64,000 nucleotides of DNA from Escherichia phage vB_EcoM_ESCO32, in the sequence record OM386658.1. One strand, written 5' to 3'. Positions within the stretch are counted from its first letter, which is position 1; each line of letters begins with the position of its first letter. The notes beneath the pieces are model-generated. The model was not told where the DNA came from, searched no databases, and saw only the letters and a list, made by a program, of their open reading frames with translations. Below, one piece after another: positions 1,883 to 15,705 of the stretch. The position numbers were made by a program, and so were the translations under genes.

Positions 1883-1929
1883 TTTCTTTTCCTGTTTTCG
1901 TTTTGGGTATGTTCTACCCTCTAAAAACA

Positions 1930-2336: not shown

Positions 2337-2344
2337 ACCGTGTA

Positions 2345-2734: not shown

Positions 2735-2757
2735 AGTATTTACCTTTTTGATTACCT

Positions 2758-2816: not shown

Positions 2817-2822
2817 TACTTT

Positions 2823-3421: not shown

Positions 3422-3431
3422 TTGATTCACC

Positions 3432-3536: not shown

Positions 3537-3554
3537 GATTCTACCCTCATTAAT

Positions 3555-3616
3555 GGGCGTTGCCTTATTGCCCCGCCCTATGTCGTACACTTTACCAGAT
3601 AACTGAATATTGTCAA
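3555..3616 (-). promoter_or_regulatory. early promoter plus imperfect leader stem-loop
   Basis: minus strand TTGACA-16 bp-TAAAGT then GC-rich imperfect palindrome GGGCGGGGCAAtaaggCAACGCCC. Confidence 0.5.
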
Positions 3617-3617
3617 A

Positions 3618-3812
3618 CTATTTTTTACAAGGGATCAGTAAACTTCTTGCTACCGCTTCACGTAAACCTTTACTTTTTATTAAATCTATTGTTGCAGGGT
3701 GGCAAGTAAAAGCCTTTGACCATTTTTGATCACCTGGTTTACGGGCGAAAATGTAAACTTCTCCGTCGATTTCATCCCAACGAGTATTGCTTGTTAGTTT
3801 TTTAAGCGCCAT
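3618..3812 (-). CDS. hypothetical early protein (about 64 aa)
   Basis: ORF track frame 3618..3842; track start (GTG) falls in the leader hairpin; in-frame ATG (MALKKL) chosen. Confidence 0.45.
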   Translation of the reverse strand: MALKKLTSNTRWDEIDGEVYIFARKPGDQKWSKAFTCHPATIDLIKSKGLREAVARSLLIPCKK

Positions 3813-3833
3813 GCTGATTTCTCTTTTAGTTAT

Positions 3834-3892
3834 GAGCGGCACTATTGCCGCCCTACGAAATACATTCTACCCGATTTATAATTGTTGTCAAA
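3834..3892 (-). promoter_or_regulatory. early promoter plus leader stem-loop cassette (variant B)
   Basis: minus strand TTGACA-16 bp-TAGAAT then GGGCGGCAatagTGCCGCTC (3834-3853). Confidence 0.55.
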
Positions 3893-4162
3893 CTATTTTT
3901 TCAAGCTCGACCAGTCAAAACACGGGGCGATCTCGTTAAAACTTGTGCCCTGTAAAGCACATAATTTTTTAGCAATAGCCGCCGTGACCTGGCGCTGTAC
4001 GCGCGGATCTGCTACTGATTGGAGAAAGTAGGCGGCTTTATATGTGATCATGCTTTCGCCTGTTTCCTTGTTAACGTGGTGCACGGTTTTAGCCTTATCA
4101 TCTTTTACCAGGGTGTAACCGGATTCGATGGCCTTGATTGCAACGTCCAATGATATTTTCAT
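3893..4162 (-). CDS. hypothetical early protein (89 aa)
   Basis: ORF track; ATG preceded by AAGAGATAA-type sequence and hairpin. Confidence 0.55.
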   Translation of the reverse strand: MKISLDVAIKAIESGYTLVKDDKAKTVHHVNKETGESMITYKAAYFLQSVADPRVQRQVTAAIAKKLCALQGTSFNEIAPCFDWSSLKK

Positions 4163-4181
4163 GATTTATCTCTTTATTGAT

Positions 4182-4203
4182 GGCGGGGAATACTCCCCCC
4201 GCC
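4182..4203 (-). promoter_or_regulatory. intercistronic GC-rich stem-loop without promoter
   Basis: GGCGGGGaatactCCCCCCGCC sits 8 nt after the stop of the upstream small ORF and 20 nt before the next ATG; no -35/-10 pair and no U-tract. Confidence 0.5.
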
Positions 4204-4210
4204 TTATTAA

Positions 4211-4381
4211 TTACTCTTCATCGTCGCCGTTGTAGTATTCAATGCCGTTTTCATCGGTTACGGTAATATTAACGCCACCGATAGCAACACGATCACGGGC
4301 AAACGTCATGGCTTCATTTAAATCTTCAGACCAAAAAATATTGTGACCTTTGCGCGATACATAAAACATAGTCGGGATCAT
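4211..4381 (-). CDS. small hypothetical protein (56 aa)
   Basis: unannotated gap ORF MIPTMFYVSRKGHNIFWSEDLNEAMTFARDRVAIGGVNITVTDENGIEYYNGDDEE; fills the gap between two cassettes. Confidence 0.45.
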   Translation of the reverse strand: MIPTMFYVSRKGHNIFWSEDLNEAMTFARDRVAIGGVNITVTDENGIEYYNGDDEE

Positions 4382-4402
4382 GATTTGTTTCTCTTCTGTT
4401 GT

Positions 4403-4464
4403 GAGCGGGAAACCACTTCCCGCCCTATGTGATAAACTTTACTACGTTGTTTTTCTGCTGTCAA
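4403..4464 (-). promoter_or_regulatory. early promoter plus leader stem-loop cassette
   Basis: minus strand TTGACA-17 bp-TAAAGT then GGCGGGAAgtggTTTCCCGCTC. Confidence 0.6.
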
Positions 4465-4465
4465 A

Positions 4466-4750
4466 TTATTTTTTAATGTTTTGCCCTACAAAATTGATCA
4501 CTTCCTTAAGCTGTTTCTCAGTCATGATCGTGCCTGGTAATTCTTCTTTGATTTCTTCCGGTAAATAGATATTACCGCGCCAAGTTAATAAACAACAGTT
4601 TTGATCTTCGCAGATGGAATAAGAGAAGATCCACTCATTATCATTCTCAAGCTCCCAAAAGCACAAAAAATCTTCTTTCCCTAAGTTTTCAACGGTTAAG
4701 CATAATCCGCGACGTGCTGCATAGTTGGAAAGTGCTTTTGTGATCTTCAT
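4466..4750 (-). CDS. hypothetical early protein (94 aa)
   Basis: ORF track; ATG; cassette upstream. Confidence 0.55.
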   Translation of the reverse strand: MKITKALSNYAARRGLCLTVENLGKEDFLCFWELENDNEWIFSYSICEDQNCCLLTWRGNIYLPEEIKEELPGTIMTEKQLKEVINFVGQNIKK

Positions 4751-4769
4751 AGCTTATCTCTTCTTTTAA

Positions 4770-4833
4770 GGCGGGGAAACCATTTCCCCGCTCTATGAGA
4801 TACAATATACTACCCGTTCGGTGTGCTGTCAAT
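4770..4833 (-). promoter_or_regulatory. early promoter plus leader stem-loop cassette
   Basis: minus strand TTGACA-17 bp-TATATT then GCGGGGAAAtggTTTCCCCGC (4771-4791). Confidence 0.6.
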
Positions 4834-5156
4834 CAATAATCTTCAATATTTTCTACATTGACAAAAGCATGTTTATTTTCTAAGTTTTCGCCGTACCATT
4901 GCCCCATGTTGATTTCTGCGGTGCGCAACCAGGACATGCCGCGTTGTATCTTTTTACTTGCAATCTCGATCCGGCTTTTGCATAGTGCTTTCGCTTGCAA
5001 TGTAAAAACACTATTGCCCTGTAATGCTTCCAGGTCATCATGTGCAAGGCGATACTCTTTAAAGCCTGATTCTATCATTTCAATAGCATCAAGTAAACGC
5101 GCGCGATGATAGAAAAAATCAGAGTTATCCAAATAAACACCGATCACAGATTTCAT
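4833..5156 (-). CDS. hypothetical early protein (about 107 aa)
   Basis: ORF track frame 4833..5216; track start lies inside the promoter spacer; in-frame ATG (MKSVIGV) downstream of the -10 chosen. Confidence 0.5.
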   Translation of the reverse strand: MKSVIGVYLDNSDFFYHRARLLDAIEMIESGFKEYRLAHDDLEALQGNSVFTLQAKALCKSRIEIASKKIQRGMSWLRTAEINMGQWYGENLENKHAFVNVENIEDY

Positions 5157-5199
5157 AATTTTACCCTTTTGTTTGCGGCCTTTGCCGTTTTCAAGATAT

Positions 5200-5228
5200 A
5201 TTTTAAAGCATAACAAAAAATTGTCAAA
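5200..5228 (-). promoter_or_regulatory. sigma70-type promoter (no leader hairpin)
   Basis: minus strand TTGACA-16 bp-TAAAAT. Confidence 0.5.
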
Positions 5229-5256
5229 CCTTTAAAGCGTACAACTATAAAACCTA

Positions 5257-5376
5257 TTAAAACACAATATATAACAACATGGCTATAGTAGCAATATAAC
5301 ATAAAACCATGCTTGTTTTCCTTCCTTCCTCATATGCTGGATTTATTACGCTATACTGTACGGGAATAACTTTCAT
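5257..5376 (-). CDS. possible small protein (39 aa)
   Basis: gap ORF MKVIPVQYSVINPAYEEGRKTSMVLCYIATIAMLLYIVF with AAGGA RBS; speculative. Confidence 0.25.
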   Translation of the reverse strand: MKVIPVQYSVINPAYEEGRKTSMVLCYIATIAMLLYIVF

Positions 5377-5385
5377 GTTGTTTCC

Positions 5386-5481
5386 TTAATGTCTTAAAAC
5401 GTGGTTTACAATAGAAACAAGTATACAGAAGAAAAAAGATCCTGACAATAAGATCCCGAAAAATAAATGTAAATAGGGCAT
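5386..5481 (-). CDS. possible small membrane peptide (31 aa)
   Basis: gap ORF MPYLHLFFGILLSGSFFFCILVSIVNHVLRH with GGAG RBS; speculative. Confidence 0.3.
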   Translation of the reverse strand: MPYLHLFFGILLSGSFFFCILVSIVNHVLRH

Positions 5482-5485
5482 GGTT

Positions 5486-5788
5486 TTACTCCTTAAAAAA
5501 ATCATTGACAATTAAACTGATAACGCCCAGCACCAGATCACCAGGTAGCGCCGCGCTTTCGTTGTTGCTTATTTGCACTTCCTCACTAGTACCAGCATGA
5601 TAAATCGCATGGTAAGCAATAGTATAATAACCTTTCGTTATTTCTTTAAGATTAATGATTAGCACGTTATTTGTTTCATCTTGAAACAATTTAGCGGTGA
5701 TAGTATTGTTTTCTTTTACACTATCGACTTTTATTGATGGATCAGTTACACCAGAAAAAAGAAAAAACGTTTTAGCTATGCCGTTCAT
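5486..5788 (-). CDS. hypothetical early protein (100 aa)
   Basis: ORF track; ATG with AAAGGAG RBS; promoter upstream. Confidence 0.55.
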   Translation of the reverse strand: MNGIAKTFFLFSGVTDPSIKVDSVKENNTITAKLFQDETNNVLIINLKEITKGYYTIAYHAIYHAGTSEEVQISNNESAALPGDLVLGVISLIVNDFFKE

Positions 5789-5810
5789 GTAGTTCTCCTT
5801 TGTTGTGTGT

Positions 5811-5839
5811 ATCTTATAACGTGCTTTCTATGTTGTCAA
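5811..5839 (-). promoter_or_regulatory. sigma70-type promoter
   Basis: minus strand TTGACA-17 bp-TAAGAT directly upstream of CDS 5486..5788. Confidence 0.5.
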
Positions 5840-6237
5840 TCTTTTATCTCGGTGCATTTTGCTAGGGTATACGTTGCAAGTGCTGACACTAGTTTTTCAT
5901 TGCTACGATCTGCGGCTGTACTGTGTACTTTTTGAATACTTTTTAGCCACGGCGTAAAGTTTTGAGTAGTAAGCACACTAGTAATAATTTCACATGGCAC
6001 GTTTTCATTTAAACCGTTAGCTATAGATTTATCTATTTTTGCCGTTAGTTGTGTAACAGCACCATAAGCGATCATGTGTGAATCCTCCATGATTTCATCG
6101 GGGATCGCATTATTAATGATCATCACGTTTTCCATTGCATCAACGGCGCTTAATTCTGCTACTGTGGAGGATATTGCCGCGTGAGATGTTCCAACCATGC
6201 CAAAAGAGATTAAACCAGCGATCAATAATTTTTTCAT
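5836..6237 (-). CDS. secreted or periplasmic hypothetical protein with signal peptide
   Basis: ORF track frame 5836..6249; start placed at MKKLLIAGLISFGMVGTSHA with GAGG RBS; N-terminal hydrophobic signal-like segment. Confidence 0.55.
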   Translation of the reverse strand: MKKLLIAGLISFGMVGTSHAAISSTVAELSAVDAMENVMIINNAIPDEIMEDSHMIAYGAVTQLTAKIDKSIANGLNENVPCEIITSVLTTQNFTPWLKSIQKVHSTAADRSNEKLVSALATYTLAKCTEIKD

Positions 6238-6245
6238 TTCTTGCC

Positions 6246-6428
6246 TCATATATGTTTTATTGAGATTATATTGTCACTATATACAACGTTTTTCAACGTG
6301 TCAATAAAAATCTTATTGCCTTCAATCCCCAGGATCACGCCGCTAGTTATGAAGCCATATTGATCACGGTATCGGGCGCATAACCTTTGCCCCTGGGCTA
6401 GTGCCTTGCTTATTTCTTCTAATCTCAT
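6246..6428 (-). CDS. hypothetical early protein (60 aa)
   Basis: ORF track; ATG with AGGAG RBS; stop overlaps the downstream gene start. Confidence 0.45.
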   Translation of the reverse strand: MRLEEISKALAQGQRLCARYRDQYGFITSGVILGIEGNKIFIDTLKNVVYSDNIISIKHI

Positions 6429-6520
6429 TTTAAAGCTCCTGTAAAGCCGTCTAACGTTGATTTATAGGCTTGCCCTGGCGTTACCATTGCCTATGGGTAA
6501 CAAGCCTCTATATAAGCTAA

Positions 6521-6548
6521 AAGGGCGCTTATTGCGCCCTTTTTTGTT
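6521..6548. terminator. GC hairpin, possible bidirectional terminator
   Basis: AAGGGCGCttattGCGCCCTT followed by TTTTTGTT on plus strand and shorter T run on minus. Confidence 0.5.
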
Positions 6549-6684
6549 ATTCGTTCCAGTATCTTTTTGTGCTGCGATCTCTTTTTGTTTTGTTCCGCTT
6601 ATCGCCTTTCTTGGTGATCTCTTCGTTCCAATTTTTACGCGCCTTGCTGCGGTTGAATTTTTCGATCTGCTGTGATGCGTTCAT
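6547..6684 (-). CDS. small highly basic protein (45 aa)
   Basis: gap ORF MNASQQIEKFNRSKARKNWNEEITKKGDKRNKTKRDRSTKRYWNE with GAGGA RBS; lysine/arginine rich. Confidence 0.4.
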   Translation of the reverse strand: MNASQQIEKFNRSKARKNWNEEITKKGDKRNKTKRDRSTKRYWNE

Positions 6685-6699
6685 GTTTTTTCCTCTTAA

Positions 6700-7059
6700 T
6701 TACGCCACGTTATGCTGTTTTGCCAGGATTACGATCATGCTTGCAATATATAACCAATAATTTTCCCGCTCACGGGTAACGGTTGTTTCTTTGCTTGTTT
6801 CTTTTATGTACTTCCATTCAATTAACAAGTGATCGATCTCGTTATAATCAAAAGCAATATTGACTTCTGACGGTAAACCTTGTAACCATGAGGCTATTGC
6901 CTTGATCACGTTATAATTGTAACGTTTTTGATTATCGGGATACCAGTATTCAGAGTTAAAACGGCGCATCAGTTCGGTGATCTTTTCTTTTTCGGTTGTA
7001 GTACCATCAAAAGAAATAGCCGACACAATGTAAGTTTTAATTGCTTTTACTGATTTCAT
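6700..7059 (-). CDS. hypothetical early protein (119 aa)
   Basis: ORF track; ATG; cassette upstream. Confidence 0.55.
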   Translation of the reverse strand: MKSVKAIKTYIVSAISFDGTTTEKEKITELMRRFNSEYWYPDNQKRYNYNVIKAIASWLQGLPSEVNIAFDYNEIDHLLIEWKYIKETSKETTVTRERENYWLYIASMIVILAKQHNVA

Positions 7060-7079
7060 AATCTTATCTCTTTATTGAT

Positions 7080-7138
7080 GGCGGGAAACCATTTCCCGCC
7101 GTTGTTGTTACTTTACTTATAAATGATGCTACTGTCAA
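7080..7138 (-). promoter_or_regulatory. early promoter plus leader stem-loop cassette
   Basis: minus strand TTGACA-17 bp-TAAAGT then GGCGGGAAAtggTTTCCCGCC (7080-7100). Confidence 0.6.
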
Positions 7139-7145
7139 ACGGATA

Positions 7146-7316
7146 TTATTTGTTTTTTAACGTTAATGTTCCCAGCTTATCAGCGTGACGCAGACCAGGA
7201 AAGATCCATTTTCCTGATTCATCTTTTACCGGGGCTTTAAGCGTAGCGCCCAGATTGGCGGCATTAACTTTACGTGCAACGTTGCGAGCGGCTTCACGGG
7301 TGGCGAAAGTGATCAT
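7146..7316 (-). CDS. small hypothetical protein (56 aa)
   Basis: gap ORF MITFATREAARNVARKVNAANLGATLKAPVKDESGKWIFPGLRHADKLGTLTLKNK; hairpin upstream. Confidence 0.45.
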   Translation of the reverse strand: MITFATREAARNVARKVNAANLGATLKAPVKDESGKWIFPGLRHADKLGTLTLKNK

Positions 7317-7340
7317 GGTGTTTTCCTCTTCTCTTTGTTA

Positions 7341-7400
7341 GGCGGTGGGCTATTCCACCGCCTTGATGAATATAGTTTACTTTATTTTGTTAAGATTGCA
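7341..7400 (-). promoter_or_regulatory. promoter-like element plus leader stem-loop
   Basis: GGCGGTGGgctattCCACCGCC hairpin (7341-7362) preceded on minus strand by TTGCAA-16 bp-TAAACT. Confidence 0.5.
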
Positions 7401-7407
7401 AGCGGTT

Positions 7408-7623
7408 TTATGAAATAATTGTCAAAGTAAAATCATAATCTTTTGACAGTTTATATTGTACCTTGTTCCCGTAATAGTCACCTTTACGTAAAGATCCGCG
7501 AATACCTATTACATCCTTTACATCTTTAAGATTTTTCACGCCTGTAATGTCTTTATTGAAATGATCGTGATCAGAAAATAAAACCTGCTTTGCATTTTTT
7601 AACAATGTGCGGATATTAGCCAT
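7408..7623 (-). CDS. hypothetical early protein (71 aa)
   Basis: ORF track; ATG; cassette upstream. Confidence 0.5.
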   Translation of the reverse strand: MANIRTLLKNAKQVLFSDHDHFNKDITGVKNLKDVKDVIGIRGSLRKGDYYGNKVQYKLSKDYDFTLTIIS

Positions 7624-7643
7624 TTGATAATCTCTCTCACTAT

Positions 7644-7701
7644 GAGCGGCACTATTGCCGCCCTATGAATTACATTTTACTAATTTTAGTTATCTTGTCA
7701 A
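7644..7701 (-). promoter_or_regulatory. early promoter plus leader stem-loop cassette (variant B)
   Basis: minus strand TTGACA-16 bp-TAAAAT then GGGCGGCAatagTGCCGCTC (7644-7663). Confidence 0.6.
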
Positions 7702-7709
7702 TATTATTT

Positions 7710-7937
7710 TTAGTTTAATGCATCCAGGCACAACAAGCGATCAACATTTAGATCGGTTAGGCTAATCGTTGGCACCTGGTAGGATTCGATATATTCGACG
7801 CTCGACCACTGACCAAAATTAGCGACCGCCCAGCTATTCAAGGAAGAGTGAAGATCATCCCCTTTCTTCTCTGTGATGACTGCTACTACCTGGGAGCTTC
7901 CAACCGTACCGGATACGCGAACAATAACGATAGCCAT
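7710..7937 (-). CDS. hypothetical early protein (75 aa)
   Basis: ORF track; ATG with AAAGG RBS. Confidence 0.5.
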   Translation of the reverse strand: MAIVIVRVSGTVGSSQVVAVITEKKGDDLHSSLNSWAVANFGQWSSVEYIESYQVPTISLTDLNVDRLLCLDALN

Positions 7938-7960
7938 AATTATAACCTTTCTTTGATTTG

Positions 7961-8020
7961 GCGGGAAACCATTTCCCGCCCTATGTGATAAACTATACCA
8001 GAATATAAAACGTTGTCAAC
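7961..8020 (-). promoter_or_regulatory. early promoter plus leader stem-loop cassette
   Basis: minus strand TTGACA-16 bp-TATAGT then GGCGGGAAAtggTTTCCCGCC (7961-7981). Confidence 0.6.
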
Positions 8021-8028
8021 TGTTTTTA

Positions 8029-8268
8029 TTACATTCCAACCATAGCGGCACGGATTGCAGTTTTACTATACTTGAATCCGTCCGGTGTTTTATCTTGTCC
8101 AGTTTGCTCCAGGAATAACATCATATCACGCGCGGCATCATTCTTATTTGTATTAGCTGCGATAAATTCACGCGCAAGATTATAAAAACCTTCATCGTTG
8201 TTGATCCAAAGGCTTACATTCCAATGAGTTTTGTTTTTGTGACCGTTGTACATTTTAGATTTAGCCAT
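8029..8268 (-). CDS. hypothetical early protein (about 79 aa)
   Basis: ORF track frame 8029..8325; track start overlaps the -10 TATAAT; in-frame ATG (MAKSKMYNGHK) downstream of hairpin chosen. Confidence 0.5.
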   Translation of the reverse strand: MAKSKMYNGHKNKTHWNVSLWINNDEGFYNLAREFIAANTNKNDAARDMMLFLEQTGQDKTPDGFKYSKTAIRAAMVGM

Positions 8269-8291
8269 GATGTTAATCTCTTTTTCAGTGA

Positions 8292-8350
8292 GGCGGGAAC
8301 TATTCCCGCTCTCTATGCAAAACATTATACGCCTTTAAACCTAGTTTGCA
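8292..8350 (-). promoter_or_regulatory. early promoter plus leader stem-loop cassette
   Basis: minus strand TTGCAA-16 bp-TATAAT then GGCGGGAAtagTTCCCGC. Confidence 0.6.
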
Positions 8351-8370
8351 AGTGCTTTTTAAAAATATGC

Positions 8371-8601
8371 TTAGATTGCAATCGCGTCTAGGCTATAATA
8401 ATAATAAGTGCCGTATTGGTGTACTTTATTACCTTTTATTTCAGTGCTGAATGAATCCGAACGATTAGCATATGATGTTAATTTATAATACTTTGCTTTA
8501 CTAATACGTTGCCATACACCGCAGATCCGCTGTAAGTAAGTAGTTTTATTAGTAGTAGTATCTTTTACGGTTTTAACTTCGGTCATATACATATTAGCCA
8601 T
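8371..8601 (-). CDS. hypothetical early protein (about 76 aa)
   Basis: ORF track frame 8371..8634; track start is inside the leader hairpin; in-frame ATG (MANMYMTEV) chosen. Confidence 0.45.
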   Translation of the reverse strand: MANMYMTEVKTVKDTTTNKTTYLQRICGVWQRISKAKYYKLTSYANRSDSFSTEIKGNKVHQYGTYYYYSLDAIAI

Positions 8602-8620
8602 TTTATTATACCTAGTTATA

Positions 8621-8683
8621 GGCGGGGGAACCATTCCCCCGTCCTGATATGAAACATTTTACGCTTTTTATTCGTGCTGTCAA
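8621..8683 (-). promoter_or_regulatory. early promoter plus leader stem-loop cassette
   Basis: minus strand TTGACA-16 bp-TAAAAT then GGACGGGGGAAtggTTCCCCCGCC. Confidence 0.6.
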
Positions 8684-8689
8684 TGCTTT

Positions 8690-9055
8690 TTATAAATCTT
8701 TTTTACGTTTAACATCGCTTGCATGACTGTATACAGCGATCCCATTGTCACGGCAAAAACGGGAAAGGTAAGCATAATTTGAAAAGTCTTTGCCTTCCAG
8801 GTTGATGACCTTGCTAAACTCTTCCAGGGCAACGGTATCAAAATGATCCCCGTAACCATAGTGAAACGGAACGTTAACGACTTCAATCAGTTTACCGCCG
8901 ATCTCAACGTCAACCATCAAAGAGAAATAAGTATTACCATAAGACTTTTGAAACCAGCGACGGGCGCTAATATGTACCGCTTCAATGCTGGATAGTTCAA
9001 TTTTAGCAGTGTTAGCCAGGGTAGCATAAGCAGAAACATTGATATTTTTAGCCAT
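8690..9055 (-). CDS. hypothetical early protein (121 aa)
   Basis: ORF track; ATG; promoter upstream. Confidence 0.55.
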   Translation of the reverse strand: MAKNINVSAYATLANTAKIELSSIEAVHISARRWFQKSYGNTYFSLMVDVEIGGKLIEVVNVPFHYGYGDHFDTVALEEFSKVINLEGKDFSNYAYLSRFCRDNGIAVYSHASDVKRKKDL

Positions 9056-9102
9056 AGTCTTTAATCTCTTTTGATTAGTTAGGAGTATTCCCGATAAAAG
9101 TT

Positions 9103-9131
9103 ATTATGCTTGTACTATCGTTCGTTGTCAA
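9103..9131 (-). promoter_or_regulatory. sigma70-type promoter (no hairpin)
   Basis: minus strand TTGACA-17 bp-CATAAT. Confidence 0.5.
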
Positions 9132-9150
9132 TAGCACAAGACTAAAACTT

Positions 9151-9330
9151 TTAACGATAATCATCATATGCTTTATTGACCTGGCGAATATAGCATTCAA
9201 AAGCTAGATCAATAGATTTATATTCACGGATATAATTACCATAGGAAACCACATACATTTCTATAGCTTCCTCATATGCCAGGAGGATAGAATCTAAACC
9301 TACGATCTCAGTCTTCGCAATAATAGCCAT
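9151..9330 (-). CDS. small hypothetical protein (59 aa)
   Basis: gap ORF MAIIAKTEIVGLDSILLAYEEAIEMYVVSYGNYIREYKSIDLAFECYIRQVNKAYDDYR; tandem promoters upstream. Confidence 0.45.
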   Translation of the reverse strand: MAIIAKTEIVGLDSILLAYEEAIEMYVVSYGNYIREYKSIDLAFECYIRQVNKAYDDYR

Positions 9331-9367
9331 GCTTTTATTCCTTAGTAATGTTTCAATCTATATAAGC

Positions 9368-9472
9368 ATTATAGCTTACTGATTTTAGGTGTCAACTGAT
9401 TTTTTATTTCACCTTTGAGAAGTTGCCCCGCTCTATGTGGTACATATTACGGGGCTTGTTTGCATATGTCAA
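9368..9472 (-). promoter_or_regulatory. two tandem sigma70-type promoters with long-loop GC hairpin between them
   Basis: minus strand TTGACA-17-TAATAT (9444-9472) and TTGACA-16-TATAAT (9368-9395); GCCCCG...CGGGGC inverted repeat around 9424-9455. Confidence 0.5.
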
Positions 9473-9475
9473 CCC

Positions 9476-10030
9476 TTACACAATGCAATTTTCATAATTT
9501 TTTAAGGCTTGTATTTTTTCCTCTTCTGTCGGCGTGTATGGCTGGATCTCTTCCTCTTCCATGTTAGGCATGATTTCTTCCTCTTCCTCCTGGTCGTCCT
9601 GGTCTTCCTCTTGCGCTATGGTAACAAGTTTATTGATCTTCTCCTGGGCTTTAATCAATTTTGCATCTAGCACCATTTTAGCGGTGTTGTATACAGTCCA
9701 TGCCATGCGCTTTTCTTCGTATGCCTTATCTAGTGCGGCTAATTTAGCGGGATACTCTTCTAACACCTTAAAAGCCGGATCAATGCTATATAAGGGATTA
9801 TTTTTAGCGTCATCGCTTGGATCTGCGGCGCTTGCAATGTCAGCGTTACCGTTTGCCAGCCAACCAGGGCGAACGGATCGCGTCTTTGTGTGACCGTTGC
9901 TCTTTGCCGCTCGATTCCCTATCTGCTCCCCGCTGTACCCTACCATGTGATCGATCATGTCATCTGGTATTATGCGCGGATCATTAGCGTCATGCTTTAC
10001 CCATGACTGGATCACATATTCACGCCCCAT
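9476..10030 (-). CDS. hypothetical protein with strongly acidic C-terminal tail (184 aa)
   Basis: ORF track; C-terminus QEEDQDDQEEEEEIMPNMEEEEIQPYTPTEEE; start overlaps the upstream gene end. Confidence 0.55.
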   Translation of the reverse strand: MGREYVIQSWVKHDANDPRIIPDDMIDHMVGYSGEQIGNRAAKSNGHTKTRSVRPGWLANGNADIASAADPSDDAKNNPLYSIDPAFKVLEEYPAKLAALDKAYEEKRMAWTVYNTAKMVLDAKLIKAQEKINKLVTIAQEEDQDDQEEEEEIMPNMEEEEIQPYTPTEEEKIQALKNYENCIV

Positions 10031-10292
10031 GTTCGTTCGCCTCTTCTGTTAGTAGTTTACACACCTTAAACATGCTTGCCGCGTCTTTTGACGGTAGCCA
10101 GCCTATGCGATACACTCCAGGATCTGGATTCGTTATATCCGTTAGTTGGGCATTACGATGATTAAAAATAGTGTAACCGCCGCCAGCACGGGGATAAACA
10201 TTATCTTTAAACCTGATAGCGTATCTCGCCAGGTTGAACGTCGTAGCATGTTCAAAAGCGATCACATTATCAAAAACTTTTAGAAAAAACAA
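10020..10292 (-). CDS. hypothetical early protein (90 aa)
   Basis: ORF track; TTG start with GGAGGA RBS 5 nt upstream. Confidence 0.5.
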   Translation of the reverse strand: MFFLKVFDNVIAFEHATTFNLARYAIRFKDNVYPRAGGGYTIFNHRNAQLTDITNPDPGVYRIGWLPSKDAASMFKVCKLLTEEANEHGA

Positions 10293-10294
10293 GA

Positions 10295-10441
10295 TTATCC
10301 TCCCCAGCGTTTAAAGCCCGTTGCACGGTTATTTTTTAACTCTCGTTTTAGTCTCTTGCAACGGTTTACAAGTGCAAACCGTGCCGGAGTGGTAACAGTA
10401 GCGCCGTTTTTGGTGTGAATACTCATTACATATTGTTTCAT
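10295..10441 (-). CDS. possible small basic protein (48 aa)
   Basis: gap ORF MKQYVMSIHTKNGATVTTPARFALVNRCKRLKRELKNNRATGFKRWGG downstream of cassette. Confidence 0.35.
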   Translation of the reverse strand: MKQYVMSIHTKNGATVTTPARFALVNRCKRLKRELKNNRATGFKRWGG

Positions 10442-10460
10442 AAAGTTTTATCCTATGTAA

Positions 10461-10514
10461 GCGGGAACTATTCCCGCTTTAAGATAGCTTATCAGGTTTT
10501 AGTGCAATGTCAAC
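10461..10514 (-). promoter_or_regulatory. early promoter plus leader stem-loop cassette
   Basis: minus strand TTGACA-16 bp-TAAGCT then GCGGGAAtagTTCCCGC. Confidence 0.55.
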
Positions 10515-10519
10515 CGTTT

Positions 10520-10882
10520 TTATTCGTAAATTTTACCGCTTTCCACCCATACCATAACACGGCGCATGTTATCCCATGCATCTTGTCGCAGATTTAAGGC
10601 ATGCAATTCTTCCGTGGTGCTCATACCTGGAACGGGCTTATTATACGTTACAAAGAGATCGCCAGCATATTCATAAGCCAGGGTAAGATCACATTGAATC
10701 ATCTTTTTAATCATAGCATCAAGCATCATATTAGCGGCATGTTGATCACGTTTTAACGGTAATGTCGCGATCTGTGTGCGATAGCTTTCGATCCGTGCAT
10801 CCACTGCATCACGCGAAAGATTTTTCACGTCATCGCGGAAAGATACCAGGTTTAACATGATAGTATTGATTTGCTTGCTCAT
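10520..10882 (-). CDS. hypothetical early protein (120 aa)
   Basis: ORF track; ATG with AAAGGG RBS. Confidence 0.55.
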   Translation of the reverse strand: MSKQINTIMLNLVSFRDDVKNLSRDAVDARIESYRTQIATLPLKRDQHAANMMLDAMIKKMIQCDLTLAYEYAGDLFVTYNKPVPGMSTTEELHALNLRQDAWDNMRRVMVWVESGKIYE

Positions 10883-10904
10883 TGTGTTACCCTTTCTTTG
10901 ATTT

Positions 10905-10964
10905 GGCGGGAAACCATTTCCCGCCCTATGTGGTATATATTACTAAATTATTTTTCAGTGTCAA
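10905..10964 (-). promoter_or_regulatory. early promoter plus leader stem-loop cassette
   Basis: minus strand TTGACA-16 bp-TAATAT then GGCGGGAAAtggTTTCCCGCC (10905-10925). Confidence 0.6.
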
Positions 10965-10967
10965 GCC

Positions 10968-11240
10968 TTAAAGCAAAAATGCTACATCTTGCGCTTTTAG
11001 TGTAGTGTCGATCATTTTCGGGCTTTTATAATCAACAAAGCGCGCGGTTTTTTCAATAGCGAAACCTAAATAATCTTGCTTATTGAAATTACATTCTTTT
11101 TTAAATGTTTCCCGTGCCACGGTGATCGCTGCATCCAGGGATAAACGCCCATCAATATTAATATTAGCGAAAGATCCGCCACCGCGCATAGGTTTACCAG
11201 TGATACCCATTACGATCATTGATGCGCTATATGATGCCAT
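10968..11240 (-). CDS. hypothetical early protein (90 aa)
   Basis: ORF track; ATG; cassette upstream. Confidence 0.55.
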   Translation of the reverse strand: MASYSASMIVMGITGKPMRGGGSFANINIDGRLSLDAAITVARETFKKECNFNKQDYLGFAIEKTARFVDYKSPKMIDTTLKAQDVAFLL

Positions 11241-11262
11241 GATTATTTCTCTCTTCTGTTAT

Positions 11263-11320
11263 GAGCGGCACTATTGCCGCCCTATGTGATACATCTTATC
11301 AGATTAAAAAACGTTATCAA
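11263..11320 (-). promoter_or_regulatory. early promoter plus leader stem-loop cassette (variant B)
   Basis: minus strand TTGATA-16 bp-TAAGAT then GGGCGGCAatagTGCCGCTC (11263-11282). Confidence 0.55.
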
Positions 11321-11328
11321 GAATATTT

Positions 11329-11424
11329 TTAAAAAATAATAACCGCTACTACAACCCAAAATGGAACGGCGAGAATGATAGCGTTAATCGTTCCAACCGC
11401 CAAGCTGTTTTCTTTCTTGATCAT
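11329..11424 (-). CDS. possible small membrane peptide (31 aa)
   Basis: gap ORF MIKKENSLAVGTINAIILAVPFWVVVAVIIF; first gene position of the minus array; speculative. Confidence 0.2.
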   Translation of the reverse strand: MIKKENSLAVGTINAIILAVPFWVVVAVIIF

Positions 11425-11692
11425 CGTTATCAACCTTTTATAAGTAATGTTATTGTGACGGTGGATTGTGGAGATCCTCACCTTTGCCCGTCCTGCATTG
11501 CGCCCTCCTTTTGTTTATTGTCGTTGTGCCTCGCCCCCCTCGACAAGATGAATAATACGCTACCAGGTGAGGAACGTCAACCCCTTTTTTAATCTTTTTT
11601 TCATTTCTTTTTTGCTTGCTATCTATAAAGGAAAGGGGCTATTATCTTTCTACCGCGCCAACCAGGGCGCACATCAAAGAAAGGGCGATACC

Positions 11693-11959
11693 ATGACAAA
11701 TACTACTTTACACCTCATGCACTCATTAGGCTGGCAAGGCGGCACGGTGCACCAGGTAGCAAGCGCAACGGGCTTAAAGGTTGAAACCGTTCTCAACCTG
11801 GGCGATCATAAGGTGGAAGAAATAGATCATTTTGATACGTTCGCAAATGGTTATCTATGGGCTTGCAGTGGCGGCGGGGAAAGCAAGATCCCACCAGGGG
11901 CGCGGGGTGATATGTATTTTTGGTTAGGTGTCCTATCCTGGCAAGAAAACAAAAAATAA
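11693..11959 (+). CDS. hypothetical protein (about 88 aa)
   Basis: ORF track frame 11567..11959; start placed at in-frame ATG (MTNTTLHLMH) with AAAGGG RBS. Confidence 0.4.
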   Translation: MTNTTLHLMHSLGWQGGTVHQVASATGLKVETVLNLGDHKVEEIDHFDTFANGYLWACSGGGESKIPPGARGDMYFWLGVLSWQENKK

Positions 11960-11962
11960 TAT

Positions 11963-11990
11963 TGACAAGCCCAGGGATCGGGCTTATACT
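11963..11990 (+). promoter_or_regulatory. sigma70-type promoter with palindromic spacer
   Basis: TTGACA-16 bp-TATACT on plus strand; spacer contains AGCCC...GGGCT inverted repeat; no downstream ORF identified. Confidence 0.45.
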
Positions 11991-12221
11991 GTCTTACATA
12001 CAGAAGAGGAAGCGCCACCCCCACGGCGTAAAGGCGGGGCTAACATACCAGGGCACTACTGGTTGGAAGGTTGATCGCCGGTAGCTCGTCTAAAATAAAT
12101 TTGTAAAGAAATGTAAAGATAAAAATAATTGCTTGCTTTTGTTGTTGGTTATGCTATTCTTATTGTATGGCGAGGGGACACGGGAGCGCGAGACAAACAC
12201 CGCCCCTGCGCGTTATTCTCT

Positions 12222-12332
12222 AAATGAGAAAATTCTCATTTGCTAATGATTCTCATTCTCTTACTGAGAATGATTATCACTTACATAGTTAAATGATAAT
12301 GATTCTCATTTACAAATGAGAATCATTATCAT
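12222..12332. promoter_or_regulatory. cluster of AT-rich palindromes with Fur-box similarity
   Basis: AAATGAGAAaaTTCTCATTT (12222-12241) and perfect 19-bp inverted repeat ATGATAATGATTCTCATTTacAAATGAGAATCATTATCAT (12293-12332); halves fit TGATAATnATTATCA at 13-14 of 15. Confidence 0.4.
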
Positions 12333-12353
12333 ACGCACACCTATAAAAACACG

Positions 12354-12552
12354 AAATTGAACTTTTCATTTTTGATTTTTCTACGGAAAAAGGCAAAAAA
12401 ACTTTAAATAAACTGGGGAATTTTTAAAAAATTGAAGTTTTCATTTTCTAAACCTGGATAGAAATACGTACAAAAACTTTAAATAATTTTGACCAAACTT
12501 GAACTTTTCATTTTCTAAATTTGTACCCAAAAATCTGTAAAAACTTTAAATA
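12354..12552. repeat. three tandem imperfect 58-bp direct repeats (iteron-like)
   Basis: units at 12354-12411, 12429-12486, 12495-12552 share TTGAAcTTTTCATTTTcTAAA ... AAAAACTTTAAATAAtTTTG; ORF-free AT-rich region. Confidence 0.6.
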
Positions 12553-12772
12553 ATTTTGTCCTTTTTATAAAAATGATTTTACTGTTCTGTTATAAATAGT
12601 AGCTAAGAGATAATGTGTCTTTTAAAAACCAAATAGCATAGTCCAACAAACAAATTAAATAATTTATTAACAGAGTACAAAATAATACTTACTCTGGATA
12701 TATTATTCAGAGGGTGAATTTCCGTACATGAAACCCACACCCCTTTTTATAAAAATAAAAATTTTCAAAATA

Positions 12773-13324
12773 TCAGGAAATATCAGATTGTGCTTTTAGA
12801 TAAACAGCAAGGTCTGTATGCCATTTTCCTAAAAGATTTTGTCCTTTCCAACAGTCCTTATTTTCCACATCACGATCCCACATCCCCATTTTGATACCAT
12901 AAATAGAATCATAAGGGCTTGCCTCTACGAACTCCTTATCGGCGTAAGCAATAAGTTTATTTTTGAGATCTTCATTTTGTGTGTATTTAAGATACAAACC
13001 ACGCTTGACAATCTTCTCTCGTAAAGAAGTCCAGGTATCTTCATCATAATCTTTAACTAATCTGCCTAGTCGCTTATAATATGCTTGTTCTTTTTCTCCT
13101 GTATATCTTAGACCTCCGGTTAAAATAGAAGATGCAATGTTGTAATCATAAAATAAACATGCTTTTCTCCACATCATATATTGTTCCACACAAGTAAATT
13201 CAACAGAACTTGTAATAGAATTATTATACTTGGGAGCTAAAGGTTCAATAAAAGATGATAGATACCAGTTGCTAAATTCATCTTTTGCCGAGAAGAAGAA
13301 CACATACTTATCAGTAATCCGCAT
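12773..13324 (-). CDS. NADAR-domain (YbiA-like) protein, putative ADP-ribose or N-glycoside hydrolase
   Basis: ORF track 183 aa; FFFSAKDEFSNWYLSSF ... EQYMMWRKA ... ASPYDSIYGIKMG ... GQNLLGKWHTDLAVYL follows the NADAR pattern recalled from E. coli YbiA. Confidence 0.7.
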   Translation of the reverse strand: MRITDKYVFFFSAKDEFSNWYLSSFIEPLAPKYNNSITSSVEFTCVEQYMMWRKACLFYDYNIASSILTGGLRYTGEKEQAYYKRLGRLVKDYDEDTWTSLREKIVKRGLYLKYTQNEDLKNKLIAYADKEFVEASPYDSIYGIKMGMWDRDVENKDCWKGQNLLGKWHTDLAVYLKAQSDIS

Positions 13325-14577: not shown

Positions 14578-15705
14578 TTAAAACACGCTTGCCAAAGTTG
14601 CACCATTGGTGATAGTTGGTTCCAGAACAATACGGAAAGAATCTTCTGGATCATCACTAAACACAACGATTTTACCACCTGTAATAAGATCTGCTTTCAT
14701 TTTTGTCGCATTCAATGGAATTCGAGCATCGCCTTCATCATCAAAAACCACGTAAGAGCTATTAGCAAGGGCTTCTTTAGAGTCTGCATCACTTGGAGAT
14801 GACAAGTACACGTCTAGTGTGCACGAGCCACCTAAAAAGATTGCAGGTGTAAAGTTATGCCAACTAGATACCCAGCTAACTTTCTGAAGTTTTCCATTAA
14901 TAACAACGCTACTGATATCCCATTTATTACCCCCACCCAAAGAAACGCCCATCATAGAGATACATTCTTTAAAGGATAAATCAGGGTAGAAATTAAGTTC
15001 TTCTACTATACCTTGGATCACATCAAAGGACAACTCTAAACTTACATCCCAAAGTCTTTGGAAATTATCAAAGTGTGCTTTGTTATCCAGGTTTTTATCT
15101 AAATAGTCAATCATAGTTTCTAGTGAGATTTTATCATAATTAAAATTATAAAACACACGACTAGGACGATTTAAAAAGAATTCAGAGATAAAACCACTGT
15201 TTTTAGTCAGAATAAACAGTTTATTACCACTGCCAGTACCATCTAACAAAGTGAGAAGTGCTTCTTGATCTTGTTTCTTCTCATACACTTTATCAAACTC
15301 GTCAAAAATAATCACTGCTTTGTCGGTGATCTTGCTAATAAGTTCAATGAAATTAGCATCACTGTAGGCTTGAGTAACCATAATAGTAGGAATACCTTCT
15401 TCTACAAGGTCACGACTAATGAGTTTGGCTAACATAGTTTTACCACTACCCTTAGTTCCTGTCAGAAGCAATCCTGTATTTTTACCTTGTGCACTCCGGC
15501 GATGGAATGTACGGATAACGTGATTTGCTCGTTTTTCTGTTTCACCATACAGAACATCCGGTACACCTGTCAGATTACCACGGCTTAAAAAATAATTGCC
15601 AAGGGGATCACGACTAACAGTATAGAATCCAGGTGGAAGATAGTTAGATTCCACGCCCATATCTTTATTTACACTTACAATATCACCATAAATCGTGTAT
15701 TTCAT
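14578..15705 (-). CDS. P-loop NTPase (AAA-like), paralog of CDS 30467..31627
   Basis: ORF track 375 aa; Walker A GTKGSGKT, Walker B IIFDEFD; about 45 percent identical by eye to the N-terminal 230 aa of the plus-strand paralog. Confidence 0.8.
   Translation of the reverse strand: MKYTIYGDIVSVNKDMGVESNYLPPGFYTVSRDPLGNYFLSRGNLTGVPDVLYGETEKRANHVIRTFHRRSAQGKNTGLLLTGTKGSGKTMLAKLISRDLVEEGIPTIMVTQAYSDANFIELISKITDKAVIIFDEFDKVYEKKQDQEALLTLLDGTGSGNKLFILTKNSGFISEFFLNRPSRVFYNFNYDKISLETMIDYLDKNLDNKAHFDNFQRLWDVSLELSFDVIQGIVEELNFYPDLSFKECISMMGVSLGGGNKWDISSVVINGKLQKVSWVSSWHNFTPAIFLGGSCTLDVYLSSPSDADSKEALANSSYVVFDDEGDARIPLNATKMKADLITGGKIVVFSDDPEDSFRIVLEPTITNGATLASVF

Follow-up and report, generated by a model that had tools for sequence, protein, structure and literature searches.

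Three direct repeats of 60 bp, occurring once in the sequence searched, under constraint and with a conserved architecture, lie in a gene-free gap in the DNA of a phi92-like phage of the genus Justusliebigvirus that has E. coli as its host; the window referred to below is the whole stretch of 64,000 nucleotides that was analysed, numbered from its first letter. Judged from the sequence, and with the support gained from comparison with relatives, a candidate replication origin is the best single hypothesis for the role of these repeats. We infer that the three units form a unique cis-acting DNA site, that a protein would bind to it, that this binder would be encoded by the phage itself, and that the site may have a part in replication.

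Three bipartite units in a gene-free gap

The repeat finder confirmed the three direct copies with two conserved cores described in the initial annotation, placing their starts at 12354, 12429 and 12496 with start-to-start distances of 75 and 67 bp, and Tandem Repeats Finder detects the last two copies only, with a period of 67. When set in register, the units measure exactly 60 bp each and have a GC content of 20-25%, which agrees with the AT-rich setting that had been reported. The earlier figures of 58 bp for the unit and 66-75 bp for the spacing were close without being exact, and the range 12354-12552 located the array correctly but stopped short of its end at 12558.

From a structural perspective, each unit is bipartite, with a box A, a free spacer and a box B, all read on the + strand. 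Unit 1 (12357-12416) carries box A at 12357-12377, in a form more diverged at its 3' end, and box B at 12397-12416; after a 15-bp linker (GGAATTTTTAAAAAA, 12417-12431), unit 2 (12432-12491) carries box A at 12432-12452 and box B at 12472-12491; and after a second linker, of 7 bp, unit 3 (12499-12558) carries box A at 12499-12519 and box B at 12539-12558. The starts of the outer units lie 142 bp apart. The 15-bp linker and its flanking bases make up a near-palindrome, AATTTTTAAAAAATT (12419-12433), and a comparable A/T palindrome stands at the same place in ESCO13 and in the Klebsiella phage phi1_175008.

Box A (TTGAACTTTTCATTTTCTAAA), with up to three mismatches allowed, has two matches in the 64-kb window against 0.02 expected, and box B (AAAAACTTTAAATAATTTTG) has three against 0.05, all of them inside the array. 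Neither box occurs outside the array in the 64-kb window or in nt 1-50000 of phi92; the search for the repeat unit elsewhere, which had been proposed as a check, therefore led back to the array alone, and the idea that the boxes belong to a dispersed class of phage promoters was rejected on the same ground. The motif AACTTTAAATAA, at one mismatch or fewer, is found in the three units only, and the matches to the box A core elsewhere are at chance level. Moreover, in a scan of the whole window for three-copy repeats at 45-99 bp spacing, the array ranked first with 53 of 72, compared with 43 for the next best candidate; shuffles matched in composition reached 43 at most. A search for relatives of the repeats on plasmids gave none.

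The array is located inside an 813-bp gap whose flanking genes are convergent, as had been stated. The left edge is formed by gp224 (11693-11959, + strand), the sole + strand gene of the first 17 kb, which encodes 88 aa with a helix-turn-helix-like stretch, and the right edge by gp223 (12773-13324, - strand), which encodes a NADAR-domain protein; gp222 is a homing-type endonuclease (CapR/T5orf172) and gp221 a classic p97-type AAA ATPase. The claim that the repeats have no coding potential held, as no ORF of at least 40 aa crosses them. Directly 3' of the array, an AT-rich and weakly conserved stretch (12559-12704) is a candidate unwinding zone. The segment 12405-12704 is the second least stable 300-bp duplex among 63,700 such windows, and the GC content is 22.6% over 12354-12640. 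In the right part of the AT-rich stretch, the arms CAGAGTA (12671-12677) and TACTCTG (12690-12696) form a hairpin that, from its sequence, could serve as a transcription terminator from either side.

Conservation of number and span across two subfamilies

The array is present in 56 of 56 Justusliebigvirus records, always in three copies and at 92-99% identity. Absence from close relatives had been named in the initial annotation as evidence against a functional site; the array was found in every one of these genomes, which favours function. Among 12 aligned Justusliebigvirus copies, 3 of 123 box columns vary compared with 7 of 82 columns of the spacers and linkers (p = 0.09), and unit 1 is invariant save for one spacer site. 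In close relatives, 10 of 205 columns of the whole array vary, and in the DNA that directly follows it 34 of 214 do (p = 2e-4). The window carries an identical T-for-A change in box A of copies 2 and 3, that is, a concerted change.

Homologous gaps, each with three direct repeats, were found in more than 15 lineages of the Stephanstirmvirinae and Vequintavirinae. The distance between the outer copies is 141-143 bp in most lineages, the exceptions being ESCO13 (138), phiWec179 (139) and 05F01 (123), and it is divided in several ways: 75+67 in phi92-like phages, 67+75 in PVP-SE1, TH18 and one further contig, 67+76 in 4MG, 67/68+74 in the KPP-1 group, 63/64+78 in CR3, P7_Pc and two uncultivated contigs, and 84+58 in the Klebsiella phage phi1_175008. 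The middle unit is degenerate in Phapecoctavirus. The sequence of the repeats tracks the lineage of the phage and not its host: a type AATACG...CGATCGAGA(A/C)C is found in Vequintavirinae of E. coli, Salmonella, Klebsiella, Cronobacter and Pectobacterium, and the AACTTTAAATAA type in Stephanstirmvirinae of E. coli and Klebsiella. The fact that copy number and spacing are kept while the sequence changes points to a binding site for a phage protein. Furthermore, the Vequintavirinae units hold perfect palindromes without a loop, CTCGATCGAG and GAAAAATTTTTC, which fit duplex-DNA sites of dimeric proteins. The same version of the array has 6-7 GATC sites in about 200 bp, and may by analogy recall Dam-regulated origins, whereas the phi92-type repeats have none.

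The array might be thought a functionless tandem duplication in a spacer between terminators, given the AT-rich intergenic DNA around it and the bare label 'repeat_region' that it bears in some database records. This is extremely improbable, since three copies and a 141-143-bp span have been kept, in most lineages, across two subfamilies despite complete turnover of the sequence, and since the boxes are conserved while the spacers and the downstream DNA drift, with no variation in copy number in 56 genomes.

Predicted promoters and the case for a candidate origin

On the + strand, the promoter-like site P1 (11962-11990) consists of TTGACA, a 17-bp spacer and TATACT, with 11 of 12 consensus positions. 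It is followed by a conserved GC-rich element (11996-12095), which keeps 83-86% identity even in Cronobacter and Klebsiella phages and has a consensus fold of 24 pairs, 2 of them compensatory, and by two copies of TGTAAAGA starting at 12102 and 12112, within the feature 11962-12119. A second promoter-like site on the same strand, P2, read from the sequence, has TTGCTT at 12133-12138, a 16-bp spacer and TATTCT at 12155-12160, and a G-rich element (12167-12212) stands after it in the feature 12129-12213; its hexamers are kept, with a free spacer, in six lineages (the window, ESCO13, PVP-SE1, CR3, TH18 and KPP-1). In the Vequintavirinae, a further site with a good promoter sequence, P3, lies immediately upstream of the array (TTGCTT-N17-TAGAAT in TH18 and TTGACT-N17-GATACT in KPP-1). 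The conserved predicted promoters are all directed into the array, and no + strand protein gene is found downstream of P1, P2 and the array. Sigma-70 promoters inside the units were considered and rejected, as there is one weak match (9/12, in unit 2), with hexamers that are not kept from unit to unit.

The palindrome cluster next to the array, already noticed in the initial annotation, proved real. It is made of four Fur-box-like palindromes of the TGAGAATnATTATCA type (12225-12336), with a perfect 19-bp inverted repeat at 12293-12332, and holds 11 of the 34 matches of the E. coli Fur 19-mer in the window, the best of them 16/19. The cluster is kept in all the relatives compared, and P1, P2 and the Fur-like boxes are common to all lineages of both subfamilies compared. 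The repeats being lineage-specific and these other elements shared, a phage-encoded binder is argued for the former and host factors for the latter.

Promoters that lead into the array, with no + strand gene after it, fit the transcriptional activation of an origin. We tentatively propose, with a confidence that stays below an even chance, that the array is a transcription-activated origin, its three units bound by a protein encoded by the phage, next to AT-rich DNA that melts easily. At such an origin, a lineage-specific phage protein would occupy box A and box B of each unit and organise about 200 bp of AT-rich DNA, while host RNA polymerase would start at P1 and P2 (plus P3 in the Vequintavirinae) and transcribe rightward into the array. 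Transcription and the bound protein would together open the array and the DNA immediately beyond it, which is very rich in AT, possibly aided by a lasting hybrid in which the G-rich beginning of the P2 transcript takes part, and a T7-type primase-helicase and a family A DNA polymerase would then load at the opened DNA. Host Fur, on the palindromes between the promoters and the array, might gate the read-through. The window encodes both enzymes, the primase/helicase (phrog_239) at 46841-48613 and, at 49110-52424, the family A polymerase (DNA polymerase I families), and a T7-type replisome is also supported by work on rV5 (PMC3606486). The array is at least 10 kb away from the replication genes.

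Known iteron-type origins include lambda ori, with four O-protein sites and an AT-rich region, and pSC101, with three iterons, while oriE of phage T4 combines iterons with RepEB. The array is similar to iteron origins in having at least three direct repeats of the same orientation, unique here, in a sequence that is specific to the replicon lineage, and in adjoining easily melted AT-rich DNA, a low duplex stability that is a property of the sequence and not actual unwinding; with lambda ori it shares transcription into the site, by the pR transcript in lambda and from predicted promoters here. It differs in its 60-bp bipartite units at 67/75 bp, compared with iterons of 17-22 bp at a spacing of about 22 bp, in the lack of a recognised adjoining or overlapping initiator gene and in the lack of an IHF site. 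In fact, none of the genes next to the array was recognised as coding for a Rep-, O- or DnaA-like initiator, although one could lie elsewhere in the genome, the IHF consensus WATCAANNNNTTR has matches in 0 of 7 homologous gaps, and the DnaA consensus TTWTNCACA gave, among the homologous gaps, single TTATACACA sites in CR3 and KPP-1 only and none in the window. The origin suggested in the initial annotation thus gained a unique site, a conserved copy number and span, a lineage-specific sequence, inward promoters and an unstable duplex, but its likeness to classical iterons did not hold for the units, and no initiator gene was recognised beside the array, nor any DnaA box or IHF site in the gap.

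In phages with a T7-type replisome, origins are built of promoters followed by AT-rich DNA. In T7, whose genome has short terminal repeats, the primary origin is placed about 15% of the way in from the left end and has the tandem promoters phi1.1A/1.1B and then an AT-rich segment. The likeness to T7 extends to tandem predicted promoters into an AT-rich non-coding stretch, a linear genome with short direct terminal repeats, in which the array stands 8% from an end, and a gp4-type primase-helicase with a family A polymerase. Unlike in T7, the promoters here are of the host sigma-70 type, with no phage RNA polymerase, and the leader is GC-rich and conserved; the T7 origin, for its part, has no large sequence-specific repeats.

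Cumulative GC skew, suggested earlier as a check, lent no support to an origin at this place: it turns at about 17 kb and about 56 kb, at switches of gene orientation, and not at 12.4 kb. As the skew follows gene orientation, it is uninformative on the origin; the authors of the rV5 study also tried GC skew and did not locate the origin (PMC3606486). A search of the literature for origin mapping or transcript maps in both subfamilies found nothing.

Several candidates were rejected. The gp224 protein, considered as the repeat binder, fails to follow the type of repeat: the window and ESCO13 have it in identical form (100%), TH18, which has the other type of repeat, still has it at 69% identity, and the small ORFs at its position in PVP-SE1 and KPP-1 cannot be aligned with it. 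As for gp221, considered as an initiator of the Orc/DnaA type, it falls in the classic p97-like AAA clade. The right-hand neighbour in the Vequintavirinae was set aside as binder because the proteins are unlike though the repeats are alike: those of KPP-1 and TH18 are 27% identical, that of CR3 has no detectable similarity, and the phi92-like DNA has no homologue. The neighbours of the gap in that subfamily are unrelated proteins without an assigned function, and do not co-vary with the repeats. An analogy to the mapped origin of ICP1 was also dropped, as one record has no comparable gap near 60 kb and the coordinates differ between isolates.

The place of the array bears as well on an operator or boundary function, in line with the array of regulator-binding sites offered as an alternative in the initial annotation. 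Here a phage regulator would block or license read-through from P1, P2 or P3 at the border between the small early genes and the convergent block, for example to control, at the early-to-middle switch, transcription that enters gp223-gp217 in antisense. The array is between convergent units and directly 3' of conserved promoters, with P3 immediately upstream in the Vequintavirinae, its dyad-symmetric boxes resemble repressor sites, the adjoining Fur-like boxes mark the region as regulatory, and a lineage-specific sequence fits a phage regulator. We nonetheless consider such an operator rather unlikely: there is no + strand protein gene downstream to be regulated, known operator sets are far smaller than three 60-bp bipartite units spread over a conserved 142-bp span, and no regulator was identified, gp224 not tracking the repeat type. 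Since the boxes occur only in the array, a regulator of this kind would control one place only.

Promoters directed into the array with no ORF after it would also suit a role at the RNA level, the repeats being modules of a non-coding P2/P3 transcript that acts as a protein sponge or an anti-defence decoy. A precedent exists in a relative, the rV5-like phage phiTE, in which tandem RNA repeats, known as pseudo-ToxI, mimic an antitoxin (Blower et al. 2012, PMC3475682). Both systems have tandem repeats that lie in non-coding DNA of an rV5-like phage, but the phiTE unit is of 36 nt, similar to ToxI, readily changes its copy number and acts as RNA, and it stands at another locus, between the tRNAs and the terminase. 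Here three copies are fixed in 56 genomes, with neither expansion nor contraction, predicted folding is no better than that of shuffled sequences on either strand (z = +0.35 and +0.14), no Rfam family matches at E up to 1, nor does any type III antitoxin family that Rfam may contain, and the loop-less palindromes of the Vequintavirinae are typical of duplex sites. An RNA role is accordingly improbable.

Genome ends, genome entry and significance

Repeat arrays serve the small terminase subunits of other phages, and a packaging site had been offered in the initial annotation as an alternative to the origin. That the array is a pac or terminase recognition site would agree with the first descriptions of rV5 and phiTE as circularly permuted (PMC3606486; PMC3475682). 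It is nevertheless very improbable, because the virion ends, which are direct terminal repeats, are about 11.6 kb from the array. In the record of phi92, a 343-bp left terminal repeat occupies nt 1-343 and the array 136753-136984 of 148612, about 11.6 kb apart; BME3 has a 342-bp terminal repeat determined by PhageTerm, with the array about 11.7 kb inside (PMC12210895), and KPP-1 a 514-bp terminal repeat about 8.5 kb from the homologous array (PMC9862379). With the ends 8.5-12 kb away in these three phages, the packaging alternative was abandoned. Furthermore, the terminase gene is not near the array, and a separate cluster of short repeats (CAACAAATAG, four copies) adjoins the terminal repeat.

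The same distance from the end invites comparison with phage T5. The gap is about 11.6-12.4 kb, or about 8%, from a terminus of a 148.6-kb genome. In T5, a stretch of 1.2 kb known as Repeat Region 3 lies 7.9% into the genome; it is not translated, is crowded with palindromes and direct repeats, and has been suggested to act as an injection stop signal (Davison, bioRxiv 10.1101/866236). By this comparison, the gap would act as a checkpoint for genome entry or as an architectural site, placed where the roughly 8% of the genome that enters first comes to an end, and its repeats would anchor the DNA, or make it pause, until the early proteins have been produced. Both regions are untranslated, measure about 1 kb and lie about 8% into the genome, where a block of small early genes ends on its inner side, and in both the conservation exceeds that of the genes next to them. 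The block on the terminus side is made of small ORFs, 15 of which were scanned against PHROGs and all gave families of unknown function or no match. In the T5-like phage EC100, the palindromes have the same Fur-box-like motif, with exact AATGAGAATCATTATCATT, and an array of direct repeats specific to the lineage comes next on the way inward from the terminus, which is also the order seen in the window. Moreover, Vequintavirinae are sensitive to daunorubicin like the T5-like phages (PMC13250531).

Much separates the two systems, however, and a checkpoint of this kind is distinctly unlikely. The role of the T5 region is itself a proposal only. T5 has paired DnaA boxes, present also in EC100 and absent from the homologous gaps here, together with nine DRD repeats of 15 bp, and its 10-kb terminal repeat has its end within the region; here there are three 60-bp units, unrelated in sequence to the T5 repeats, and a terminal repeat of 343 bp located 11.6 kb away. 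No ORF could be recognised as a homologue of T5 A1, A2 or dmp, though remote homologues are possible, the early block 700-11481 has no ORF of at least 200 aa and its largest ORFs match PHROG families of unknown function, and no literature report of two-step entry in rV5- or phi92-like phages was found. A broader form of the analogy, to which we give only a slight probability, would make the 813-bp gap a checkpoint of entry and of the early programme shared in principle by T5-like siphoviruses and rV5/phi92-like myoviruses, with the repeats as a phage-specific stop or anchor. Within it, with equally slight probability, the Fur-binding palindromes and the repeats, at about 8%, would pause or anchor the DNA at the edge of the host-takeover genes; and, no more probably, the inward-pointing P1 and P2 would then drive or license the entry and use of the remainder.

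The rV5- and phi92-like phages are widely used as candidates for therapy and biocontrol, yet in none of them is an origin, a packaging signal or an early control region known to have been defined. The array provides a precise candidate site, with three units that keep their number and their 142-bp span in two subfamilies even as their sequence is replaced, and a working division of the gap into a part probably read by the host (sigma-70-type promoters and Fur-like boxes) and a part probably read by the phage (the repeats). Should the likeness to T5 prove true, two-step genome delivery would extend beyond the T5-like phages and would be tied to the sensing of iron by the host. If instead the preferred reading of the array as a replication origin is true, a type of origin with large bipartite repeats would have been described, and phage-dependent replicons, landing sites for engineering and studies of copy number would become possible.

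The three-unit array and its surroundings

The repeat finder returned three copies with start-to-start distances of 75 and 67 bp which, read in register, form units of exactly 60 bp (unit 1, 12357-12416; unit 2, 12432-12491; unit 3, 12499-12558), the spacing being unequal because the linkers measure 15 and 7 bp. Each unit is built of a box A (TTGAACTTTTCATTTTCTAAA) and a box B (AAAAACTTTAAATAATTTTG), separated by about 19 bp of spacer that is unlike between units. When the repeat unit was sought elsewhere in the 64 kb, both boxes matched only at the array (chance expectation 0.02-0.05); the shorter core AACTTTAAATAA is also confined to the three units and, in a scan for any three-copy repeat of the window, the array ranked first (53/72, vs 43 for both the next best and the shuffle maximum). 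No ORF of at least 40 aa was found across it. From spacing, uniqueness, rank and absence of an ORF it follows that the initial annotation, which had reported iteron-like triple repeats at 12354-12552, described the region correctly. The array is annotated as an unnamed 'repeat_region' in the GenBank records of inny and alia, and no published discussion of it was found. Among the readings that were dropped, sigma-70 promoters inside the units lack conserved hexamers, a dispersed promoter motif is at odds with boxes that are not repeated elsewhere, and a structured RNA is not indicated by units that fold no better than shuffled sequence on both strands and have no Rfam match.

The gene-free gap holding the array (11960-12772, 813 bp) is bounded on the left by gp224 (11693-11959, + strand), the sole + strand gene in the first 17 kb of the window, and on the right by gp223 (12773-13324, - strand), encoding a NADAR-domain protein; beyond it come the genes of a homing-type endonuclease and an AAA ATPase. 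The left side is occupied by some two dozen small - strand ORFs, 15 of which, scanned against PHROGs, matched unknown-function families or nothing; the replication genes run from 23 kb onward on the + strand. Two paralogous AAA ATPases of PHROG family 2376 are encoded at 14578-15705, 2 kb from the repeats and of the classic p97-like clade by PDB sequence search, and at 30467-31627, within the replication module and matching the PHROG family alone.

Among the phi92-like phages (genus Justusliebigvirus, subfamily Stephanstirmvirinae) the region has counterparts of 97-98% identity; in phi92 itself it lies on the opposite strand, at nt 135923-137923. Three records titled 'Campylobacter phage' (MG065639, A150; MG065650, B15; MG065689, A110a) are about 97% identical to E. 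coli phi92-like/phAPEC8-like phages over this region and are probably mislabelled or contaminant assemblies. The array is kept, always with three units, in 56/56 Justusliebigvirus records at 92-99% identity. In an alignment of 12 copies, 10 of its 205 columns vary vs 34 of 214 in the DNA directly downstream (p = 2e-4) and, within it, 3 of 123 box columns vs 7 of 82 in spacers and linkers (p = 0.09). Of the three variable box columns, two represent one position of box A, in units 2 and 3 (12449 and 12516); there the window has T and all 11 other aligned genomes have A, a concerted change that points to gene conversion or joint selection.

A layout common to two subfamilies

Phapecoctavirus, the Klebsiella Stephanstirmvirinae and Vequintavirinae (rV5-like, Seunavirus, Certrevirus, Mydovirus) have a homologous gap at the equivalent map position, with five parts in fixed order. 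The first (11962-12119) is a near-consensus sigma-70-type promoter, P1 (TTGACA-N17-TATACT), with a GC-rich element of about 100 nt after it; at 83-86% identity across the two subfamilies, even in Cronobacter and Klebsiella phages, this element surpasses the adjacent genes in conservation. This element may be a non-coding RNA: its consensus fold has 24 pairs, 2 of them with compensatory changes, and it shows no Rfam match and no excess folding energy. The phage cardinal carries an HNH homing endonuclease gene within the element, inserted after GATCGC (stretch L021, 425-1150, in its own coordinates; about 12074-12083 of the window), and at that point a KPP-1-like uncultivated contig of the other subfamily (L042) has about 700 bp of inserted DNA with an ORF, besides a second, diverged copy of promoter and element. 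The second part (12102-12213) comprises two invariant copies of TGTAAAGA 10 bp apart, directly upstream of the promoter-like P2 (TTGCTT-N16-TATTCT; conserved hexamers, free spacer), and then a G-rich element (ATGGCGAGGGG...CCCCTGCGCG), which in CR3, by eye, shows apparently compensatory changes (AGCGGG...CCCGCT). The third consists of palindromes, two to four in number, which in several lineages have a spacing of about 29 bp; the fourth, in Vequintavirinae, is a third good promoter (P3), and the array of three direct repeats closes the series.

The E. coli Fur box consensus is GATAATGATAATCATTATC. The gap palindromes fit it and are candidate host Fur sites: 11 of the 34 window matches with at most 5 mismatches (shuffles, about 7 per 64 kb) fall within 12242-12336, the best agreeing at 16/19 positions, and the phage's own palindrome consensus has 9 matches vs 0.3 expected, all of them either here or, close to the end of the genome, at 540-616. 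In these phages such palindromes (TGAGAATnATTATCA) are confined to the large non-coding regions, namely the gap and the terminal repeat with its surroundings (window 12225-12336 and 540-616; phi92 nt 77-290, L025; KPP-1, L017 16700-16870).

The Vequintavirinae repeats have another sequence (AAAAATTTTTT ... AAATACG ... CTCGATCGAGAAC) on the same plan of two conserved boxes and a free spacer, and the geometry of the phi92-like array. Spacings are 75+67 bp in the phi92-like phages, 67+75 in PVP-SE1, TH18 and an Av-05-sized contig, 67+76 in 4MG, 67/68+74 in the KPP-1 group, 63/64+78 in CR3, P7_Pc and two uncultivated contigs, and 84+58 in Klebsiella phi1_175008, so that most lineages have 141-143 bp between the outer copies; Phapecoctavirus (138-139 bp, middle unit degenerate) and Klebsiella phage 05F01 (123 bp) depart from this. 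In phiTE the CGATCGAGACCC boxes are retained at about the CR3 spacing (by eye) and the other box has decayed; the antitoxin-mimic repeats of this rV5-like phage, considered as a counterpart, are at another locus. In both subfamilies, several lineages share a short recurrent motif, TTTGAGATA(A/T), 3' of the three repeats (L017 25480-25620, L027 1765-1860, L004 2595-2610), and the window has a similar AAGAGATAAT at about 12606.

The repeat type goes with the lineage of the phage, not with its host: repeats differ between the E. coli phages of one subfamily and those of the other, and Vequintavirinae of five host genera share one type. Promoter hexamers and palindromes are common to all lineages. 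From this distribution we infer that a phage-encoded protein would read the repeats, and host factors the rest of the gap. The small protein gp224 has a helix-turn-helix-like stretch (GGTVHQVASATGLKVETVLNL) and no Pfam match; it was rejected as the binder because ESCO13, a Phapecoctavirus phage, has a copy of 100% identity, TH18 has one of 69% identity despite carrying the other repeat type, and the small ORFs that take its place in PVP-SE1 and KPP-1 could not be aligned with it. The right-hand neighbours of the gap in Vequintavirinae were also discarded, being mutually unrelated though the repeats are alike.

Genome ends, packaging and injection

The initial annotation had offered a packaging site as an alternative, and this is now largely excluded. 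In the phi92 record a left direct terminal repeat of 343 bp is annotated, and the array lies at 136753-136984 of 148612, so that its distance from the right end is 11.6 kb, or 8% of the genome length. For BME3, PhageTerm gave a terminal repeat of 342 bp (PMC12210895), the first 342 nt of its record, and window nt 1 is BME3 nt 619; KPP-1, with a 514-bp terminal repeat and T7-type packaging (PMC9862379), carries the homologous array about 8.5 kb from that repeat. Older reports describe rV5 and phiTE as circularly permuted (PMC3606486; PMC3475682). With terminal repeats away from the array documented in two phages of the group to which the window belongs, a packaging role is unlikely. The window starts about 280 bp inside the terminal repeat of its genome, and its least stable duplex (269-568) adjoins that end. 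In BME3, four CAACAAATA(G) copies just inside the terminal repeat (L015 343-410) could belong to the packaging signal; the end of the same record (PP239276 nt 146169-147371; L016 1798-3000) repeats its first 788 nt, contains N bases and looks like an assembly artefact around the terminal repeat.

The palindrome cluster is matched by T5-like phages. In EC100 the match is to the untranslated 'Repeat Region 3', which borders the pre-early genes on their inner side and, at 7.9% of the T5 genome, has been proposed, without proof, as the injection stop signal; Fur is not mentioned in that preprint (Davison, 10.1101/866236). The same motif, including an exact AATGAGAATCATTATCATT, fills the EC100 region (L026 1201-1385), and palindromes are followed inward by lineage-specific direct repeats, the element order and relative map position of the window gap. 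However, the paired DnaA boxes, A1/A2 proteins and long terminal repeat of T5 have no counterpart in the window phage, and a T5-like injection stop region is an improbable rival reading of the gap.

A probable binding site and candidate origin

The array, unique and constrained, is very probably a functional cis-acting protein-binding site, and would be bound as duplex DNA by a phage protein. The origin proposed in the initial annotation is reasonable and unproven. A transcription-activated origin, suggested tentatively as the leading explanation, fits because promoters point into the array with no gene downstream, the array borders the 300-bp segment that ranks second in the window for low duplex stability, and the replisome is T7-type. 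It is conceivable that the P2 transcript, being G-rich at its start, forms a lasting RNA-DNA hybrid, and that read-through is gated at the Fur-like boxes. Such an origin would be like that of T7 or lambda in logic but unlike them in its unusually large bipartite repeats. Against it, cumulative GC skew is silent at 12.4 kb, its turning points (about 17 kb and about 56 kb) coinciding with the switches of gene orientation (the rV5 authors met the same problem; PMC3606486), and no IHF sites were found in seven gaps examined, where the DnaA consensus gave single matches in CR3 and KPP-1 only. As an initiator, gp221 was rejected, being a p97-type AAA ATPase outside the initiator clade. The three Vequintavirinae repeats hold 6-7 GATC sites within about 200 bp (L017 25250-25470, L007 2860-3040, L008 2880-3090) and perfect loop-less palindromes (CTCGATCGAG, GAAAAATTTTTC); these GATC sites are in line with an origin, but the phi92-type repeats have none.

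The three-unit 142-bp geometry conserved over two subfamilies appears to be undescribed. The array is real and not a chance repeat, and is best classed as a repeat-organised cis-acting control site and a candidate origin.
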